Assembly: GCA_943356495.1 (NCBI GenBank)
Contig: CALRFF010000002.1
Location: forward strand, 99,826-163,825
Length of the DNA: 64,000 nt
Direction of reading: 5' to 3'
From: Candidatus Nomurabacteria bacterium
Lineage (GTDB): Bacteria; Patescibacteriota; Minisyncoccia; Phycocordibacterales; SBAW01
The notes under the pieces were generated by a model. That model had not been told where the DNA came from, did not search any database, and worked only from the letters and a program-made list of their open reading frames with translations. This document shows, one piece after another, positions 6,850 to 61,142 of the stretch (within the stretch, counting starts at the first letter, position 1; every line of letters starts with the position of its first letter). A program made the position numbers and the translations under genes.

Positions 6850-6922
6850 GGTGGCCGTAGCTCAATGGTAGAGTCCTGGTTTGTGGTACCAGTTGTTGTG
6901 GGTTCGAATCCCATCGGCCACC
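6850..6922 (+). tRNA. tRNA-His (anticodon GTG) with encoded G-1
   Basis: Cloverleaf: 7-bp acceptor stem gtggccg/cggccac, D-arm gctc-aatggta-gagt, anticodon stem ctggt/accag with loop ttGTGgt, T-arm gtggg-ttcgaat-cccat. An extra 5' G pairs with discriminator C, which is the tRNA-His hallmark. Confidence 0.8.
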
Positions 6923-6935
6923 CCCTACTATCGGT

Positions 6936-7342: not shown

Positions 7343-8020
7343 ATGTCCGAGGATACAAAATTTGAGTTTACTACCCCGATGGCGGTAGTGGCGGCCGGCG
7401 TGATTATCGCAGGGGCAATTTTGTACGCCAACACGCAGTCGTCCGCCAATGCTGCGCCGCAAGGGGGTTCGCAGCCGACGGTAGAGGCCCACGTGCAGGC
7501 GCCGAGCGCGGCCGACTACCGCTACGGCTCGGCAAATGCGGAGGTGGTGCTTATCGAGTACTCCGACTTTCAGTGCCCGTACTGCACCATGGTGCATACG
7601 ACACTTAAAGGCCTCGTCGATTCTTCAAACGGCAAAGTGGCGTGGATAATGCGCAACCTGCCGCTTACGCAGATACATCCGCAGGCCAACCCCGCGGCCA
7701 ACGCCGCCGAGTGCATCGGGGAGCAGTTGGGCAGCGCCGGCTGGTGGCGGTATGCCGACGCCGTCTTTGCCAACCCCGACAAACTCAGCGCGCAATACTC
7801 GGCTGAGCTCGCCAAGCAGTTTGGCGCGGACACCGCCAAGTACAATGCCTGCGTTAGCTCGGGTAAATACCAAGCTAAAATAGATGCGCAAACCGCCGAC
7901 GTGCGCGCTTCCGGCGGCAACGGTACGCCCTTTACGGTCGTGTACGGTAAAGGCAAACAGGTGCCGGTGTCGGGGGCGGTGCCGGCGGCTATGTTTCAGT
8001 CGGTAATAGATTCCCTTTAA
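7343..8020 (+). CDS. DsbA-like thiol:disulfide oxidoreductase (thioredoxin fold)
   Basis: N-terminal TM anchor and the CPYC active-site motif (DFQCPYCTMVH). Confidence 0.8.
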   Translation: MSEDTKFEFTTPMAVVAAGVIIAGAILYANTQSSANAAPQGGSQPTVEAHVQAPSAADYRYGSANAEVVLIEYSDFQCPYCTMVHTTLKGLVDSSNGKVAWIMRNLPLTQIHPQANPAANAAECIGEQLGSAGWWRYADAVFANPDKLSAQYSAELAKQFGADTAKYNACVSSGKYQAKIDAQTADVRASGGNGTPFTVVYGKGKQVPVSGAVPAAMFQSVIDSL

Positions 8021-8037
8021 TAGCGTCTGAACTAACT

Positions 8038-8829
8038 ATGAACGATATATTTAAAGCAGGTCCGGTCAAATGGGCGGTCATTACTCTAACCGTGTTTTTG
8101 GGGCTTTTGTCGGTCGGTGCGCTTATGAACTTGCGCTACATCGGCGCGGGCGTCGCGGCGGCTAACACTATTTCTGTCTCCGGTTACGGCGAAGCCTTTG
8201 GCGCGCCGGACATCGCCACCTTTTACTTCTCGGTAGTCTCTGAAAAGTCGACTGTTGCAGCCGCGCAAGCGGACGCCACGGCTAAAATAAATGCCGTTAC
8301 CAAGTATCTTACCGACGCGGGTGTAGACAAAAAGGATATCCAAACCAGCGACTACTCGGTTAACCCGCAGTATGACTACATACAAGGCGTTTGCTCGGGC
8401 GGATACTGCCCGGGCGGCAAGCAGGTGCTTAAGGGCTACCAAGTGCGCCAGACCACCACTATTAAGGTCCGCGATACGGCTAAGGCCGGTGATCTTTTGG
8501 CCGGCGTAGGGGAAAAGGGCGCAACAGAAGTGTCGGGACTCAACTTTACTTTTGACGACCCGAACCAAATGCAAGACGACGCGCGCGGCAAAGCTATTGC
8601 CGATGCCAAAGCCAAGGCCGACGAGCTTGCTAAGCAGCTCGGGGTCCGGTTGGTGCGCGTAGTTTCCTTTAACGAAAACGGCGGCGGCTACCCATCGCCG
8701 ATGTACGCGCGCGACATGGCCTATGGCCTCGGCGGTGTAGCCAACGAAACCAAGGCGGTTGCTCCGGAAATCTCGATAGGCCAAAATAAAGTGACCAGCA
8801 CTGTCTCGGTAACCTACGAAATACGCTAA
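8038..8829 (+). CDS. SIMPL/DUF541 (YggE-like) periplasmic protein
   Basis: N-terminal TM followed by ISVSGYGEAFGAPDIATF, which is the SIMPL-domain signature. Confidence 0.65.
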   Translation: MNDIFKAGPVKWAVITLTVFLGLLSVGALMNLRYIGAGVAAANTISVSGYGEAFGAPDIATFYFSVVSEKSTVAAAQADATAKINAVTKYLTDAGVDKKDIQTSDYSVNPQYDYIQGVCSGGYCPGGKQVLKGYQVRQTTTIKVRDTAKAGDLLAGVGEKGATEVSGLNFTFDDPNQMQDDARGKAIADAKAKADELAKQLGVRLVRVVSFNENGGGYPSPMYARDMAYGLGGVANETKAVAPEISIGQNKVTSTVSVTYEIR

Positions 8830-8883
8830 ACCCCACCTTTTGGCGGGCAGGTTGACCAAAGCCTAAAAAAGAGTATAGTAAGA

Positions 8884-8908
8884 AAAAGCCCCCGGAAGGG
8901 GTTTTTTC
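8884..8908 (+). terminator. rho-independent terminator
   Basis: gcccccggaaggggc hairpin followed by TTTTTT. Confidence 0.6.
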
Positions 8909-8933
8909 TTAGGAAAATCACTCAATTAACGCC

Positions 8934-9104
8934 ATGTTTAACTATTTTAAAGAGGTGCGCGCCGAAATGAAGCATGTAAGCTGGCCGACCCGCCGCATGG
9001 TGGTCGTATATACCGCGGTCGTCGTTGCTATATCACTTAGCGTCGCGGTCTACTTGGGCCTTTTGGACTACGTCTTTACGGTGTTTATTAAACAGATCGT
9101 ATAA
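8934..9104 (+). CDS. secE: preprotein translocase subunit SecE (57 aa, below the ORF-track cutoff)
   Basis: MFNYFKEVRAEMKHVSWPTRRMVVVYTAVVVAISLSVAVYLGLLDYVFTVFIKQIV has a basic N-terminus and a single TM. It sits immediately upstream of nusG, the conserved secE-nusG-rplK order. Confidence 0.75.
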   Translation: MFNYFKEVRAEMKHVSWPTRRMVVVYTAVVVAISLSVAVYLGLLDYVFTVFIKQIV

Positions 9105-9118
9105 CCGTCACCAATCGT

Positions 9119-9670
9119 ATGAGTAAACAAGACACATCAGTCGGCCGCGCGTGGTACGCGATACACACCTACGCAGGGTATGAAAACGCGGTTGCCCGCA
9201 ACCTCAAACAGCGCATTGAGAGTCTTGGTCTTACCGACAAAATATTTCAGGTAGTAGTACCGACCGAACGTACGATAAAGATTAAGGGCGGCAAGCGCGT
9301 TGAGGAGGAGGAAAAGGTATACCCCGGCTACGTCTTGGTAGACATGATAGTGGACGACCAGTCGTGGTACGTCGTGCGCAACACTCCGCGCGTCACCGGC
9401 TTTGTAGGCTCGGGCGTTAATCCCGTGCCGCTTAAGGAGTCTGAGGTGGCGATATTGCTCGGCCGCATGCAGGCAACCGAGGGCAGTGTTAAACATGCTA
9501 TCGACCTCTCGGTGGGCGACCAAGTGACCATTGTTGACGGACCGTTTAAGGAGCTCGACGGCAAGGTGGGCGAGGTAGACGAGTCGCGCGGCAAGGTAAA
9601 AGTCTTGGTGGCGATGTTCGGCCGCGAGACGCCGGTGGAGTTGGACTTTTTGCAAGTAAAGCGCATATAA
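9119..9670 (+). CDS. nusG: transcription termination/antitermination factor NusG
   Basis: NGN domain (WYAIHTYAGYENAV) and C-terminal KOW (GDQVTIVDGPFKELDGKVGEVD). Confidence 0.9.
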   Translation: MSKQDTSVGRAWYAIHTYAGYENAVARNLKQRIESLGLTDKIFQVVVPTERTIKIKGGKRVEEEEKVYPGYVLVDMIVDDQSWYVVRNTPRVTGFVGSGVNPVPLKESEVAILLGRMQATEGSVKHAIDLSVGDQVTIVDGPFKELDGKVGEVDESRGKVKVLVAMFGRETPVELDFLQVKRI

Positions 9671-9694
9671 GCTATAGTCTCAATCTCAGAATAT

Positions 9695-10117
9695 ATGGCA
9701 AAGAAACTGGTTAAAAAGATAAAAATAATCGCCATGGGCGGCGCTGCCGCTATGACACCGGCCATGGGGCAGGTGCTGGGCCCGGCCGGCATTAACATCG
9801 GCGAATTTTTGAAGAAGTTTAACGACGCATCTAAAGAGATGCGCGGCGACATGGTGCCTGCGGTTATCAGCGTGTACGAGGACCGTTCGTACGACTTTGT
9901 ACTCCGCACGCCGCCGGCGTCGAGCCTTATCCTCAAAGCAATAGGTAAAGAAAAGGGGAGCGGTAAGCCTAATACTGGCAAAGTAGGCACCATTACCAAG
10001 GCGCAGGTTAAGGAAATCGCCGAGCGCAAAATGGTAGACCTTAACGCCCACACCATAGAAGAGGCGGTCAAAATTATCGCCGGCTCCTGTCGTAGTATGG
10101 GCGTAGACGTGAAGTAA
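9695..10117 (+). CDS. rplK: 50S ribosomal protein L11
   Basis: MAKKLVKKIKIIAMGGAAAMTPAMGQVLGPAGINIGEFLKKFN is the canonical L11 sequence. Confidence 0.95.
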   Translation: MAKKLVKKIKIIAMGGAAAMTPAMGQVLGPAGINIGEFLKKFNDASKEMRGDMVPAVISVYEDRSYDFVLRTPPASSLILKAIGKEKGSGKPNTGKVGTITKAQVKEIAERKMVDLNAHTIEEAVKIIAGSCRSMGVDVK

Positions 10118-10241
10118 CCGCCGATTCTTGCAAATTTCATACTTCTGTGCTACTATACGCCGCGGGTTTGTACCTGTGGCGTATTGCGTTTTGTAGCAAC
10201 CGCGTAACAACAATCATCAGACAACAAGCGGAGTTAAGCGA

Positions 10242-10658
10242 ATGAAGATTTACTTCGGCGGCGGCGTAGGCCATCGCCCCGGTCCGGTCGCCAAGCTGCT
10301 CGAGGCGCTCGCCCCCGTATTGCAGGGCCGTGGTCACACGGTGCTCAAATGCGGGCCGACGCCGACGGAAAGCGCGCTCTATGACGCCAACTTGGCGTGC
10401 ATTACGGCAAGCGACCTGTTTATCGCGCCGGTCGACGCTCCCACCATGGAGCTCGGCGCCGACTTGCAGGAAGCTATCCGTGTCGAAAAGCCGGTGCTGT
10501 GCATTACCGACGGCCGGAATCCTATCGCGTCGGCGTACCTTATCGGCGCCGACGCCGAGGGCGTTCTCGACCTCACGGCGTTCCGTGACGTCGACGATGC
10601 CGCCGAGAAGATCTGTGCCTTTGCGGTGATCGCGCAGGCACAGCGCGCGGCGGCGTAG
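10242..10658 (+). CDS. nucleoside 2-deoxyribosyltransferase-like (NDT-fold) protein
   Basis: MKIYFGGG N-terminus and PTMELGADLQEAIRVEKPVLCI resemble the NDT family Rossmann motif, including the catalytic Glu in an xELG context. The gene has very high GC. Confidence 0.45.
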   Translation: MKIYFGGGVGHRPGPVAKLLEALAPVLQGRGHTVLKCGPTPTESALYDANLACITASDLFIAPVDAPTMELGADLQEAIRVEKPVLCITDGRNPIASAYLIGADAEGVLDLTAFRDVDDAAEKICAFAVIAQAQRAAA

Positions 10659-27972: not shown

Positions 27973-28731
27973 ATGCGGCTCTTTGACGCGCATTGCCACC
28001 TGCAGCTGCCCCAGTACGACGCCGACCGCGCCGAAGTGTTGGCGCGCATGGCATTGGCGGGGGTGGGCGCGGTGGTTATCGGCACCGATTTTGAAACATC
28101 AAAGGCAGGGCTTGAGCTTGCGAAACAACATGACTTTTTATGGGCATCTGTCGGTCTGCATCCCAACGACAATGCCGACGAAGAATTTGATGTGGCACAG
28201 TACGAGGCACTGGCCCGCGACCCAAAAGTGGTAGCTATAGGGGAGTGCGGGTTGGATTACTTTAGGACCACCGGCCAAGGCCAGCGCAAAAGGTTCGAGG
28301 CACAGATAGCGCTTGCGCAAAAAGTAAACAAAGCGTTGGTGGTACATTGCCGCAATGCGCACGAGGACTGTATTAGTGTTTTGCAAAACACTGCAATAGC
28401 AAGCAAGGTGCCGGTGGTTATTCATTTTTTTACAGGTTCGGGCGAGCTGGCACAACAGTACCTCAATCTTGGGTGCTATCTCTCGTTCCCGGGGCCTATA
28501 ACTTACACCGACATGTACGACGACTCTATTCAGGTGTGCCCTATGGATAAGATGCTGGTAGAGACCGATGCTCCCTTTGCCGCACCGGTCCCGCACCGCG
28601 GCAAGCGCAACGAACCCGCATATGTTGCTGCAGTGGCCGCCAAAATCGCCGCGGTTAAAGGAATCCCCGCAGAGGAGGTGTGTCGCCAAACCGTCCTTAA
28701 TGCACAACGGATTTTTACTATTGACAAGTAG
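27973..28731 (+). CDS. tatD: TatD-family metal-dependent hydrolase/DNase
   Basis: MRLFDAHCHLQ N-terminus and conserved His/Asp/Glu spacing. Confidence 0.85.
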   Translation: MRLFDAHCHLQLPQYDADRAEVLARMALAGVGAVVIGTDFETSKAGLELAKQHDFLWASVGLHPNDNADEEFDVAQYEALARDPKVVAIGECGLDYFRTTGQGQRKRFEAQIALAQKVNKALVVHCRNAHEDCISVLQNTAIASKVPVVIHFFTGSGELAQQYLNLGCYLSFPGPITYTDMYDDSIQVCPMDKMLVETDAPFAAPVPHRGKRNEPAYVAAVAAKIAAVKGIPAEEVCRQTVLNAQRIFTIDK

Positions 28732-28812
28732 CACCAAAAGGAGTATAATAATAGGCGAACTGATGGGACCCGAAACTCGTCGGGCCACAGAACAGTTCGT
28801 TTAAAAAGGAGA

Positions 28813-29496
28813 TTGATGATGTCGATGCAACCCGCATTGAACACGTCGCCGGTCGTGACCGCCGATAGCCCCAAGGGGCTGCGTGCGCTCGAGACCTTCC
28901 GCGCCCAATACAACAAGGCCCAGCTCGACGACGAGGGTGCCCAACTGCTCAATGAGCACAAGGACTTCGCCGCTTACTTAGCCGAGGGCATTCGCAAGTT
29001 CTCGACCAAAGGGTCGGTGTTCCCGGTTTATCTCGAGATCGAGACGGGCAGCAAGTCGAGGGACGAGCTGCTGAAGGAACTGAAGGCGGCCGAGGTCGAG
29101 GTCTCCAAGTACGCCAAGGACATCATGTCCAAGGACGCTTGGAAGCCTGGCGAGAAGCAGGTCGTCAAATTCGCGCGGGTCAAGGTGAGCGAACTCGGGT
29201 TCACCAACCCGAACAAGCTTCCAACGACTCGCGAGATCTGGGCACGCATCCAGGAACTCGGGCACAGCCTCTGCGAGCCGGCTGACGGCCCGGCCATCCG
29301 GCTGAGTCTCAAGGACCAGCCGCGCGGCGACTACTTCTGGACTGCGATGGAACAGATTTCGGACTCCGGCGGCAGCCCGAGCGTGTTCTTCGTCAAGCGG
29401 TACGACGGCGGCAAGCGCTGGCTCCACGACTTTTGGGTCCGCCCCGACGACCGGTGGTTTCTCGTCGTCGAGTTCGTGTTCCGTCTCCGCAAGTAA
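28813..29496 (+). CDS. DGR target (variable) protein, C-terminal CLec-fold-like variable region
   Basis: Its last 132 nt (the VR) match the downstream TR with adenine-specific substitutions. The TR-encoded ancestral C-terminus ...NDNWVNPDNQWNLDNEIVFRLR follows the Asn-rich, GFRxxR-like ending typical of C-type-lectin-fold DGR targets. Confidence 0.85.
   Translation: MMMSMQPALNTSPVVTADSPKGLRALETFRAQYNKAQLDDEGAQLLNEHKDFAAYLAEGIRKFSTKGSVFPVYLEIETGSKSRDELLKELKAAEVEVSKYAKDIMSKDAWKPGEKQVVKFARVKVSELGFTNPNKLPTTREIWARIQELGHSLCEPADGPAIRLSLKDQPRGDYFWTAMEQISDSGGSPSVFFVKRYDGGKRWLHDFWVRPDDRWFLVVEFVFRLRK
29360..29491 (+). repeat. DGR variable repeat (VR)
   Basis: 132-nt ungapped alignment to the TR with 19 mismatches, all opposite TR adenines. 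The 3' 21 nt are identical (IMH-like). Confidence 0.9.
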
Positions 29497-29543
29497 CACT
29501 CAAGTTTTAGGGTTTAGCCCTAACTCTTGGTCCTTAGCCCTTC

Positions 29544-29579
29544 GGCCCGCATCGCAAGATGCGGGCCGCTTTCTTTTTT
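29544..29579 (+). terminator. GC hairpin with GCAA loop plus T-tract downstream of the VR (terminator / DGR-associated stem-loop)
   Basis: ggcccgcatc-GCAA-gatgcgggcc followed by gctttcttttttg. Confidence 0.6.
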
Positions 29580-29813
29580 GTATACTAAGGAGCGGTAGTA
29601 GGCGAGTATGCGTGCGGCAAGGACTGCGCGCTGCCCAATCCAGCAGACTTGCGCTGAGAATTTTTTCAACTGCGGTTGAGAAAAGAGTGGTTCAAGCGAG
29701 CTTAAAAAATAGAAGATACTTGGTGCGAGGCGCTACGGCATTGCGATGCCAAATACGATACAGGTTCTTGAATAATCGAGAGCCGGTGGCACGGGCGGCG
29801 CCCCGCACATAAA

Positions 29814-29945
29814 CGGACTCCGACGGCAACCCGAACGTGTTCTACGTCAAGCGGAACGACGACGGCAAGCGCTGGCTCAACGACAATTGGGTCAACCCCG
29901 ACAACCAGTGGAATCTCGACAACGAGATCGTGTTCCGTCTCCGCA
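29814..29945 (+). repeat. DGR template repeat (TR)
   Basis: Noncoding copy of the VR. It contains the AAC/AAT codons (in target frame) at every position that differs in the VR. Confidence 0.9.
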
Positions 29946-29952
29946 GCTCTCT

Positions 29953-30351
29953 TTATTTCTCCCCTGCCTTGGTAGGGGAGTTTTGTTTTGCGAGCTGACC
30001 GCTCCAACCATTGAGCATCTTTCCTATCTCGTCGAGTGGTTGAGCTAGCGCTAAGTAGCGTTTGTCGCGCAGAGATTTTGTCTCCCAAAGAATCAGGAGT
30101 AAAAAGTTGAGCGTGTTGAGCTTTTGCAGAGCCAACAGTACTACGGGACTCTTTTTATCCTTGGGGGCATAGACCGCCGAGGTTATACGTTCGATAAGGT
30201 CAATAAACAAGATGTCTACTCTTTCGCCTAGCGTGTAGCGATGGGCCTTTGGCAGCGTAAGATAGTACTCATGCCACAACAAATAAGCCTGTTTGACCCG
30301 CTCCAAAATAGGCAAAAGCCGTTGGGGGGGGGCTCGTAAAAGAGGACTCAC
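29953..30351 (-). CDS. avd: Avd-like DGR accessory variability determinant (four-helix-bundle family), encoded antisense to TR/RT
   Basis: ILERVKQAYLLWHEYYLTLPKAHRYTLGERVDILFIDLIERITSA aligns with Bordetella bAvd (IVERYERVISYLYPIAQSIPRKHGVAREMFLKCLLGQVELFIVAG). Length is about 130 aa with a basic C-terminus. The start codon is uncertain (the ORF track used GTG). Confidence 0.7.
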   Translation of the reverse strand: MSPLLRAPPQRLLPILERVKQAYLLWHEYYLTLPKAHRYTLGERVDILFIDLIERITSAVYAPKDKKSPVVLLALQKLNTLNFLLLILWETKSLRDKRYLALAQPLDEIGKMLNGWSGQLAKQNSPTKAGEK

Positions 30352-31315
30352 TCATACATATGACGATATCATTTCTGTCGAGAACCTGCTCGCGGCATGG
30401 AAGGAGTTTCGGCGTGGTAAGCGGTCCAAGCTAGACGTGCTGGAGTTTCAAACTGACTTGATGTATCAAATCACCGCTTTGCACGATGAATTAAAGAACA
30501 AAACGTACAAGCACGGCGGCTACCACCACTTTCGCATCAGTGACCCAAAACCCCGCGACATACACAAGGCGAGTGTACGCGACCGGCTGCTTCATCACGC
30601 CATATATAGAAAGCTGTACCCGTTCTTCGACAAAAAGTTCATTGCCGACTCTTACTCCTGCCGCCTGGGGAAGGGGACGCATAAGGCGATGAGTCAGTTC
30701 CGCCGATATGCCGGCAAAGTATCCCGCAACCATACCCGCACGTGCTGGGTCCTGAAGTGCGACATCCGCAAGTTCTTTGCCTCGATCGACCACCGGGTGT
30801 TGTTCTCCATCCTCGAGCGCTCCATACCCGACTCGGATATCCGCTGGCTCTTGCAGGAGGTGGTCGGCAGCTTCCGTGCGAGGCTAAACCTCGCACAAGG
30901 GTTGCCGCTCGGGAATCTCACAAGCCAACTCTTGGTCAACGTGTACATGAACGAGTTTGACCAATACACGAAGCACACGCTCAAAGCCAAGCACTTCATT
31001 CGCTATGCGGATGATTTTGTGCTGCTTTCGCACAACAAAACAGAGCTAGAAAAAAGACTACGATATATCGTAGTCTTTCTATGGGACAAATTAAAGCTGA
31101 AATTGCATCCCAACAAAGTATCCATCAGCACCTTTGCCTCCGGCGTCGACTTTTTAGGCTGGGTGCACTTTACCGACCACCGTGTGTTGCGTACTGCGAG
31201 CAAAAAGAGGATGCAGCGACGGCTACGAGAGCAAGCAGGGAATGAAAGTACCCGTCAATCATATATCGGGATGTTGAAGCATGGGAATACCGAGAAGTTG
31301 CGGCAAAAAATCTGA
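30293..31315 (+). CDS. DGR reverse transcriptase
   Basis: N-terminus ISVENLLAAWKEFRRGKRSK matches the bRT-like WENLWAAYRKAARGKR. SYSCRLGKGTHKA is the DGR-specific motif. LPLGNLTSQLLVNVYM has the I/LGxxxSQ signature in place of QGxxxSP. RYADDFVLL is the YADD motif. Length is about 330 aa. The true start is probably downstream of the TTG chosen by the ORF track. Confidence 0.9.
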   Translation: MTRSKIGKSRWGGARKRGLTHTYDDIISVENLLAAWKEFRRGKRSKLDVLEFQTDLMYQITALHDELKNKTYKHGGYHHFRISDPKPRDIHKASVRDRLLHHAIYRKLYPFFDKKFIADSYSCRLGKGTHKAMSQFRRYAGKVSRNHTRTCWVLKCDIRKFFASIDHRVLFSILERSIPDSDIRWLLQEVVGSFRARLNLAQGLPLGNLTSQLLVNVYMNEFDQYTKHTLKAKHFIRYADDFVLLSHNKTELEKRLRYIVVFLWDKLKLKLHPNKVSISTFASGVDFLGWVHFTDHRVLRTASKKRMQRRLREQAGNESTRQSYIGMLKHGNTEKLRQKI

Positions 31316-57393: not shown

Positions 57394-57667
57394 GACCTCT
57401 ACAAGATATGTTGATCACAAAAGACCTTATGAAGCGCCATCGGTAAGCCCTTCGGGTTTTGCCTGCGGCCGCTTCGAAAGAAGCGGTTTTTTGTTTCAAG
57501 GATATCTTCGGCCTTTGACAACTGAATTCTGTCACGCAGCACCACGTTTGAGACGTGGGTCTTTTGTGGGTGTGGAGACAGGCAGGTAAAAAAATCAAAA
57601 AGAAGAAAAGTAGAACAACAAATTATTGCGGTCCTTAAGTCCTCTTCTCTCAAACAAAGGGAAGAGA

Positions 57668-60935
<3,268 letters not shown>

Positions 60936-61030
60936 TTCGCCTCCCGCAAGGGAGGCGGGGAGAAGAGGATATTGAGGATCGCAATAATTTGTTGTTACCT
61001 TACTTTTGATTTTTTTTGGACTTTGTACTC

Positions 61031-61142
61031 TGGTGGTTCAACGGCGGGGTCACACCCGTTCTCTTTCCGAACACGGAAGTTAAGCTCGCTAGTGGCGATG
61101 GTAGTCACTGTTACAGGTGGCCAGAGTAGCTAACCGCCAGAG
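61031..61142 (+). rRNA. rrf: 5S ribosomal RNA
   Basis: tctggtggttcaacggcggggtcacacccgttctctttccgaacacggaagttaagctcgctagtggcgatggtagtcactg...ccagagtagctaaccgccaga matches the 5S consensus (helix I pairing tctggtgg/ccgccaga, loop C ccgaac). Confidence 0.85.

Follow-up and report, generated by a model that had tools for sequence, protein, structure and literature searches.

The 64,000-nucleotide stretch of Candidatus Nomurabacteria contig CALRFF010000002.1 that was analyzed here (referred to as the window) contains a diversity-generating retroelement (DGR), whose target gene lies between tatD and rpsF-ssb-rpsR. We found that this DGR is currently active: the variable repeat (VR) at the end of the target gene turns over between near-identical genomes, while the template repeat (TR) stays constant. 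The target is, judged from its sequence, a stand-alone soluble protein of two modules. We infer for it the location, the adaptor role and the ligand of a cytoplasmic diversified binder or sensor, coupled by its N-terminal module (N-module) to a conserved partner, and put the probability of this reading at around 50%.

Activity of the retroelement and delineation of its target gene

VR and TR are 86% identical over 132 nt, and all of their 19 mismatches are located at adenines of the TR and affect codon position 1 or 2. Altogether, 24 VR codons can be diversified, which corresponds to about 4e20 protein variants. The turnover became apparent from an independent ENA metagenome contig (L007), which is 98.7% identical to the window across 2.8 kb. 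The two sequences differ at 37 positions, 20 of which fall within the 132-nt VR, and every one of these 20 coincides with an adenine of the TR. The TRs do not differ at all (0 differences), and L007 has retained an intact TR, Avd and reverse transcriptase (RT). A decayed DGR remnant, considered as a candidate, is ruled out by this recent adenine-specific VR turnover alongside an intact TR, Avd and RT. Among 80 family members, the mean entropy was 2.60 bits for the TR-adenine codons, against 0.69 bits for the adenine-free VR codons and 1.17 bits for the rest of the head. The gene thus combines adenine-confined VR/TR differences with an adjacent DGR-type RT, an avd gene and ongoing mutagenic homing, and the original prediction of a small, genuine DGR target is borne out. 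In the mechanism we propose, the final 44 target codons would be rewritten by the RT at the 24 adenine-templated codons, and the adenine-free codons would keep the scaffold fixed.

It could be argued that the signal-less appearance of the open reading frame (ORF) is an artefact: the start could be mis-called, the ORF could be no more than the C-terminal part of some larger, secreted protein, or the DGR could have decayed. The sole point in support is the general difficulty of start calling, and we consider this explanation very improbable. The ORF as flagged (28813-29496) begins at TTG 28813; given the position of the GGAG ribosome-binding site (28808-28811) and the fact that the homologs start with MMSMQ or MSMQ, ATG 28816 or ATG 28819 are likelier starts. 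In-frame, a tatD stop is encountered 27 codons upstream with no ATG, GTG or TTG in between, and therefore the ORF cannot be longer. A signal revealed by start reassignment was looked for and was absent, and neither did any of the 128 homologs (all 246 aa or shorter) turn out to be part of a larger secreted protein. The perfect promoter and the GGAG directly upstream, as well as the adenine-specific VR turnover in L007, likewise speak against an artefact. Considering the consensus promoter upstream and the hairpin terminator downstream, the target gene constitutes its own, monocistronic transcription unit. The homologous cassette of the related locus L001 occupies a different site and has a near-identical promoter element (TTGACT...GAGTATAAT) in front of it, which implies that the promoter travels with the cassette.

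Export signals and modules of the target protein

The presence of export signals in the target and its 128 homologs was assessed by hydropathy and motif scans. The Kyte-Doolittle maximum of the target was 0.43 (19-residue window) and the best 8-residue window within the first 40 residues reached 0.92. In line with the signal peptide and transmembrane (TM) segment having been reported as missing, these scans revealed no lipobox, twin-arginine motif, hydrophobic h-region or TM helix in the target, nor a C-terminal sorting motif; the protein has one Cys only and no Cys pair. A search with a head-only profile against 5.8 billion proteins yielded 121 matches, all of 86-246 aa, and a Pfam domain or a fusion to a larger domain was found in none of these. 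The 128 family members span the same range of 86-246 aa, with N-terminal extensions of 0-90 residues, and a convincing signal peptide was recovered from none of them by the same scans. A few extensions include a hydrophobic stretch (P0295, starting VKKLFF..., P0073 and P0277), and these look like upstream mis-called starts. As far as such scans can tell, none of the detectable members of the target family has a classical export signal, and the target would be made without a Sec, Tat or lipoprotein signal and without a membrane anchor.

An AlphaFold2 model of the target was built from an 80-sequence alignment (predicted local distance difference test 90.3, predicted template modelling score 0.71). 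In this model, residues 1-10 are disordered and three helices follow (19-34, 39-47 and 49-63), then a lower-confidence linker and an alpha/beta domain made up of residues 73-226. The VR sits within the C-type lectin (CLec) fold of the model, in agreement with the CLec-type variable C-terminus that had been proposed from the DNA, and the head is best regarded as a CLec fold of minimal size (~158 residues, as modelled) and very high divergence. On the sequence level no family match for the target was found in Pfam, PHROGs and NCBIfam, and neither FGE-sulfatase nor DUF1566 nor another CLec Pfam family was recognized in it. Searches of PDB sequences with the target protein, the N-module profile and the head profile gave no match. 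A Foldseek comparison, which had been suggested as a way to place the fold among known DGR variable proteins, was run against PDB and BFVD and produced nothing significant (best match the mincle carbohydrate-recognition domain, E 0.1). The non-variable part of the head contains the motif ELGHSLCEPADGP (residues 147-159; window about 29254-29292). Within the 80 homologs G149 and C153, the latter being the sole Cys, are invariant, and E147, H150, D157, G158 and P159 are nearly so; these residues could bind a metal or a ligand, or form a turn of structural importance.

The N-module has the conserved core [VI]T[SA][RD]D[PS]KG..[AF]...[FV][ER]AAY[ND]KA.L....AQ.[LV]N[ED], as derived from column frequencies. 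A word-index search with the 68-aa N-module alone was uninformative (2 matches) and was replaced by an exhaustive profile search. In this way, 178 clusters were recovered from 1.84 billion representatives, with the module nearly always at residues 1-60 of proteins of 180-310 aa. Within the head family, 50 of the 128 members carry the N-module of the window, about 22 have an N-terminus of at most 20 residues, about 18 carry an unrelated MTLxxxVxDDQLGxYYRRT... module and others further helical modules of 40-70 aa. Some short members keep a MSMQxALNTS...KG peptide without the helices. The proteins with an N-module end in a variety of tails, namely ...VFRLRK (the window family), ...GLSAARK, ...YGSASGFLPQ, ...LLCFCDEE, ...VLSRD and ...WFAFVRK, and in ten sampled proteins no Pfam family was found for the head. 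Two of the other N-module families contain verified DGR targets, one (L006) with a VR/TR pair, Avd and RT, and one (L008) with an inverted 131-nt VR/TR pair, Avd and RT; for a member of the LLCFCDEE-tail family (L009) no TR was found within 3 kb. Going by these sequence comparisons, the N-module is a handle that can be swapped or dispensed with and that is common to at least three different DGR-target head families. Being interchangeable, absent in some relatives and shared across head families, it would act as an adaptor and not as a leader peptide.

The N-module profile shows a weak match to the repeats of the helicase-associated (HA) domain (PF03457; hhalign probability 86%, E 5e-6, 38 columns). 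Both are predicted three-helix units and they share the pattern (T/N)AD..K......R..Y.K..L..E....LN...G[FW]. On the other hand, the HA tryptophans are not conserved in the N-module, and Pfam hmmscan sees HA in only 1 of 19 N-module sequences (E 0.12). Moreover, the link explains little, because the function of HA is itself unknown. One protein from the representative library (P0161, 343 aa) combines the N-module with a C-terminal RNA polymerase alpha C-terminal domain (CTD; Pfam 3.5e-10), a hint that the module is able to function in the cytoplasm and in association with DNA.

Layout, mobility and genomic context of the cassette

The promoter, target, TR, opposite-strand avd and RT form a compact DGR cassette that spans positions 28721-31315 of the window (Table 1). 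The Pfam and NCBIfam scores of Avd are below the curated cut-offs, which is expected given the divergence of Candidate Phyla Radiation (CPR) proteins. The identity between VR and TR terminates in an adenine-free GC-rich stretch, and the hairpin with the GCAA loop is found ~50 nt downstream; apart from being a plain terminator, it may also be a candidate DGR-homing helper hairpin. The hairpin directly 3' of the TR could mark the 3' end of a TR-containing RNA, if such an RNA is transcribed from the + strand. Further VRs or target paralogs were not found within the 64-kb window. The G+C content of the target gene (28813-29499) is 0.59-0.64, whereas the flanks have ~0.50-0.56 and parts of avd and RT 0.46-0.51. 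Either the way in which the codons of the VR scaffold are designed or acquisition of the target gene from a foreign source may account for the rise.

Table 1. Positions of the DGR cassette features in the window.
Feature	Position	Strand	Remarks
Target-gene promoter	28721-28749	+	TTGACA-17 nt-TATAAT, 12/12 sigma-70 consensus matches; -35 hexamer overlaps the last tatD codons
DGR target (variable protein) gene	28816-29496	+	226 aa from ATG 28816; stop TAA 29494-29496
N-terminal module, residues 1-68	28816-29019	+	AlphaFold2 model, profile search
Divergent C-type-lectin-fold head (as modelled), residues 69-226	29020-29493	+	
VR, last 44 target codons	29360-29491	+	132-nt direct repeat with TR
Intrinsic terminator of target gene	29543-29578 (hairpin 29543-29568 plus T-run)	+	11-bp GC-rich stem, GCAA loop, fold z-score -5.5
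TR	29814-29945	+	34 adenines; ten AAC/AAT codons in the VR frame
Hairpin (9 bp) plus T-run, terminator-like, directly 3' of TR	29959-29980	+	Within avd coding region of the other strand
avd (accessory variability determinant), 132 aa	29953-30351	-	Pfam bAvd 9e-9, PHROG 'Avd protein of DGR' 1e-9, NCBIfam DivGenRetAVD 1.1e-14
DGR reverse transcriptase, 340 aa	30293-31315	+	Pfam RVT_1 1e-25, phrog_1423 2.5e-109; LGNLTSQ and YADD read in translation

All relatives originate from metagenome-assembled genomes of Patescibacteria (Paceibacterota, Parcubacteria, Minisyncoccia and some labelled Saccharibacteria), and close homologs with enough downstream DNA are followed by avd on the opposite strand and then the RT. 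L001 and the window have a collinear housekeeping backbone with 66-71% DNA identity, and the cassette is 74% identical. In L001 it resides elsewhere (7982-10108), between the genes for an aminoacyl-tRNA synthetase and an AI-2E permease, and the empty sites are reciprocal: tatD abuts rpsF in L001, and the synthetase gene abuts the permease gene in the window. In L004 the cassette (8001-10483) is located between a release-factor gene (PCRF/RF-1) and rpsP. Judged from these three different intergenic sites in related Paceibacterota, the cassette behaves as a mobile unit; a recombinase or terminal repeats were not seen at the window, L001 and L004 sites. The original prediction had pointed out the position between tatD and rpsF, which has no functional significance: a functional link of the target to these genes is rejected on basis of the reciprocal empty sites. 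Since the cassette occurs at different sites in collinear genomes and has its own promoter, the neighbourhood is incidental. At none of the examined loci was the cassette linked to genes for secretion, pili, sortase, NTPases, effectors or phage structural proteins, nor was it flanked by a conserved partner gene.

The verified DGR loci of two other N-module families, L006 (1941-3972, 10871-16804) and L008 (3444-8192), adjoin large serine recombinases (Resolvase/Recombinase/Zn_ribbon_recom) and in addition N6_N4 DNA methyltransferases and large helicases, which suggests that these loci are integrative (mobile) or defence islands. Receptor-binding proteins of phages typically combine swappable N-terminal anchors with variable C-terminal heads. 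Another reading is that the target binds receptors as part of a phage, a tailocin or a similar particle. Assembled in the cytoplasm like Mtd of a Bordetella phage, it could do without a signal peptide, and the N-module would dock it to a fibre or baseplate encoded elsewhere; both the handle/head layout and the recombinases and methyltransferases next to L006 and L008 fit that picture. We nevertheless regard it as improbable: the target has neither a PHROGs match nor a significant structural match in BFVD, the flanks in the window and its relatives consist of housekeeping genes without phage structural genes, and the target gene, with a promoter and a terminator to itself, forms a monocistronic unit.

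In the flanking DNA examined, no adjacent RT was found for the divergent head homologs L013, L016-L019 and L022, which may be remote targets or non-diversified paralogs. At L017 (6767-7474), a second small ORF directly downstream of the RT-less head homolog ends in ...FLCWNDGRWDWGADRLDVDWYPNDPSAVLAE, resembling the tail of a variable protein, and this pair may represent tandem remote targets or non-diversified paralogs. Elsewhere in the window, the 23S rRNA match (57662-60928) measures 3267 nt against a model of 2925 nt, so the gene probably carries an insertion of about 340 nt; it is followed by a 5S gene (61029-61142). A 16S rRNA gene was not found within the 64 kb, and 16S thus seems not to be linked to 23S-5S. 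The window has a single tRNA gene (His, 6850-6925).

Comparison with known targets and the site of action

A target without export signal is a documented pattern of CPR DGRs as a class and not an anomaly of this locus. DGRs are enriched in the CPR, and their targets typically lack TM or other recognisable domains; the location was left open, and ligands and sites of the targets were acknowledged as an open question (Roux et al. 2021). The present target matches that class (RT clade 2 of Roux et al. 2021, the 'CPR set' of Wu et al. 2018) in the patescibacterial host of all its homologs, and in being small, with a C-terminal VR and no TM segment, signal peptide or recognisable domain. The cassette also resembles those of the CPR, in that its TR and RT are accompanied by an avd gene on the opposite strand and by no other accessory gene; the likeness to architecture B3 (avd-TR-RT), which the text of Wu et al. 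2018 (PMC5758913) reports for 90% of the CPR DGRs, is based on that textual description. According to the same text, most CPR VRs were left unclassified (UVR1-6 or ungrouped). Unannotated CPR VR domains have been predicted to adopt divergent CLec folds (Roux et al. 2021), and what is new here is a confident CLec-fold model for the ...VFRLRK family. For an N-module common to several target families we found no description in the literature covered, which did not include Paul et al. 2017 or the supplements of Wu et al. 2018. The view that a target of this kind is uncommon holds in relation to the few characterised ones (Mtd, TvpA and LdtA), but not for the CPR, where it has been reported as the norm (Roux et al. 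2021), nor in the light of the predicted cytoplasmic DGR targets of Dore et al. 2024 (PMC10907252).

The structurally known variable proteins TvpA (Treponema denticola, PDB 2y3c), Mtd (Bordetella phage BPP-1, PDB 1yu0) and AvpA (archaeal) share with the target a C-terminal VR in a C-type-lectin-type fold, and adenine-templated variable codons (AAC/AAT) next to scaffold residues from adenine-free codons. They differ in that the sequence identity is 6-13% and that the window protein, at about 158 aa, has a much smaller head. Whereas TvpA is a lipoprotein and Mtd forms the trimeric tip of a phage tail fibre, the window target has no lipobox and no phage context. A second point of comparison is formed by STAND/AAA NTPase conflict systems and their CLec sensors, which are predicted to be cytoplasmic (Dore et al. 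2024; Kaur et al. 2020). The sensors are DGR-diversified, lack an export signal and have been proposed to act in intracellular recognition (PMC10907252). AAA-ATPase-CLec fusions are the commonest recognisable target architecture in the CPR, as PMC10907252 relates from Paul et al. 2017. These sensors are, however, large proteins that combine several domains, among them an NTPase transducer and effector domains, whereas the head described here is preceded by a helical module of ~65 aa or, in relatives, by nothing. An NTPase fused to the head was found in none of the 121 head-family proteins, and none was encoded beside the cassette in the window or its relatives.

In the reading that we give even odds, the target would bind or sense inside the cell, and the three-helix N-module would dock it to a conserved partner. 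The hints counted for this cytoplasmic role are the alpha CTD of P0161, the weak HA match, the single invariant Cys and the precedent of DGR targets with a predicted cytoplasmic location (Dore et al. 2024, PMC10907252). Several points weigh against it. The lack of a recognisable signal is no proof of a cytoplasmic location, CPR proteins being divergent and non-classical export being compatible with the sequence; in addition, the absence was established by scans and not by SignalP or DeepTMHMM. The HA similarity is weak (1/19 sequences, E 0.12 in Pfam hmmscan), the alpha CTD fusion is a single case, and a linked partner of the N-module was not identified. Finally, according to the proposal that currently stands in the field, CPR bacteria attach to host cells by means of their DGR targets (review PMC10221324, there attributed to Paul et al. 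2017).

That proposal leads to the strongest rival, in which the target would be a non-classically exported adhesin, displayed on the surface or released, with the N-module or its peptide serving as the export signal or as a docking signal onto a pilus or S-layer, and in which diversification would tune how the episymbiont attaches to particles or to the cells of its host. Besides being the standing hypothesis for CPR targets in that review, this view draws on the fact that cellular DGR targets elsewhere are mostly envelope proteins (Roux et al. 2021). It is also in keeping with the position of the N-module at the extreme N-terminus in nearly all 178 clusters, with the conservation of the first ~20 residues in spite of their disorder, and with the short family members that retain the MSMQxALNTS...KG peptide without helices. 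Set against this, about 22 members have nearly no N-terminal extension and many carry unrelated N-modules, so that a universal N-terminal signal does not exist; secretion, pilus and sortase genes were unlinked in all examined loci and a C-terminal sorting motif is absent; and one N-module protein bears the DNA-binding alpha CTD of RNA polymerase. On balance, we consider an exported adhesin possible, and less probable than a cytoplasmic binder or sensor.

More tentatively still, it is conceivable that Parcubacteria possess a modular 'handle plus diversified head' system, in which an N-module of ~45-60 residues plugs several unrelated, DGR-hypermutated lectin-fold heads into one common partner. 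If this is true, it would amount to an antibody-like repertoire without classical secretion in bacteria with tiny genomes, made up either of intracellular sensors of invaders or of proteins that follow a new export/docking route. The locus described here is a clean case, with an active DGR, a monocistronic target gene with a consensus promoter, a family without recognisable signals and a confident fold model, and the shared N-module makes it possible to approach by experiment whether such a target senses inside the cell or attaches at the surface. The understanding of how DGRs work is left unchanged by these findings; they bear on the question what DGRs serve for in episymbiotic ultra-small bacteria.
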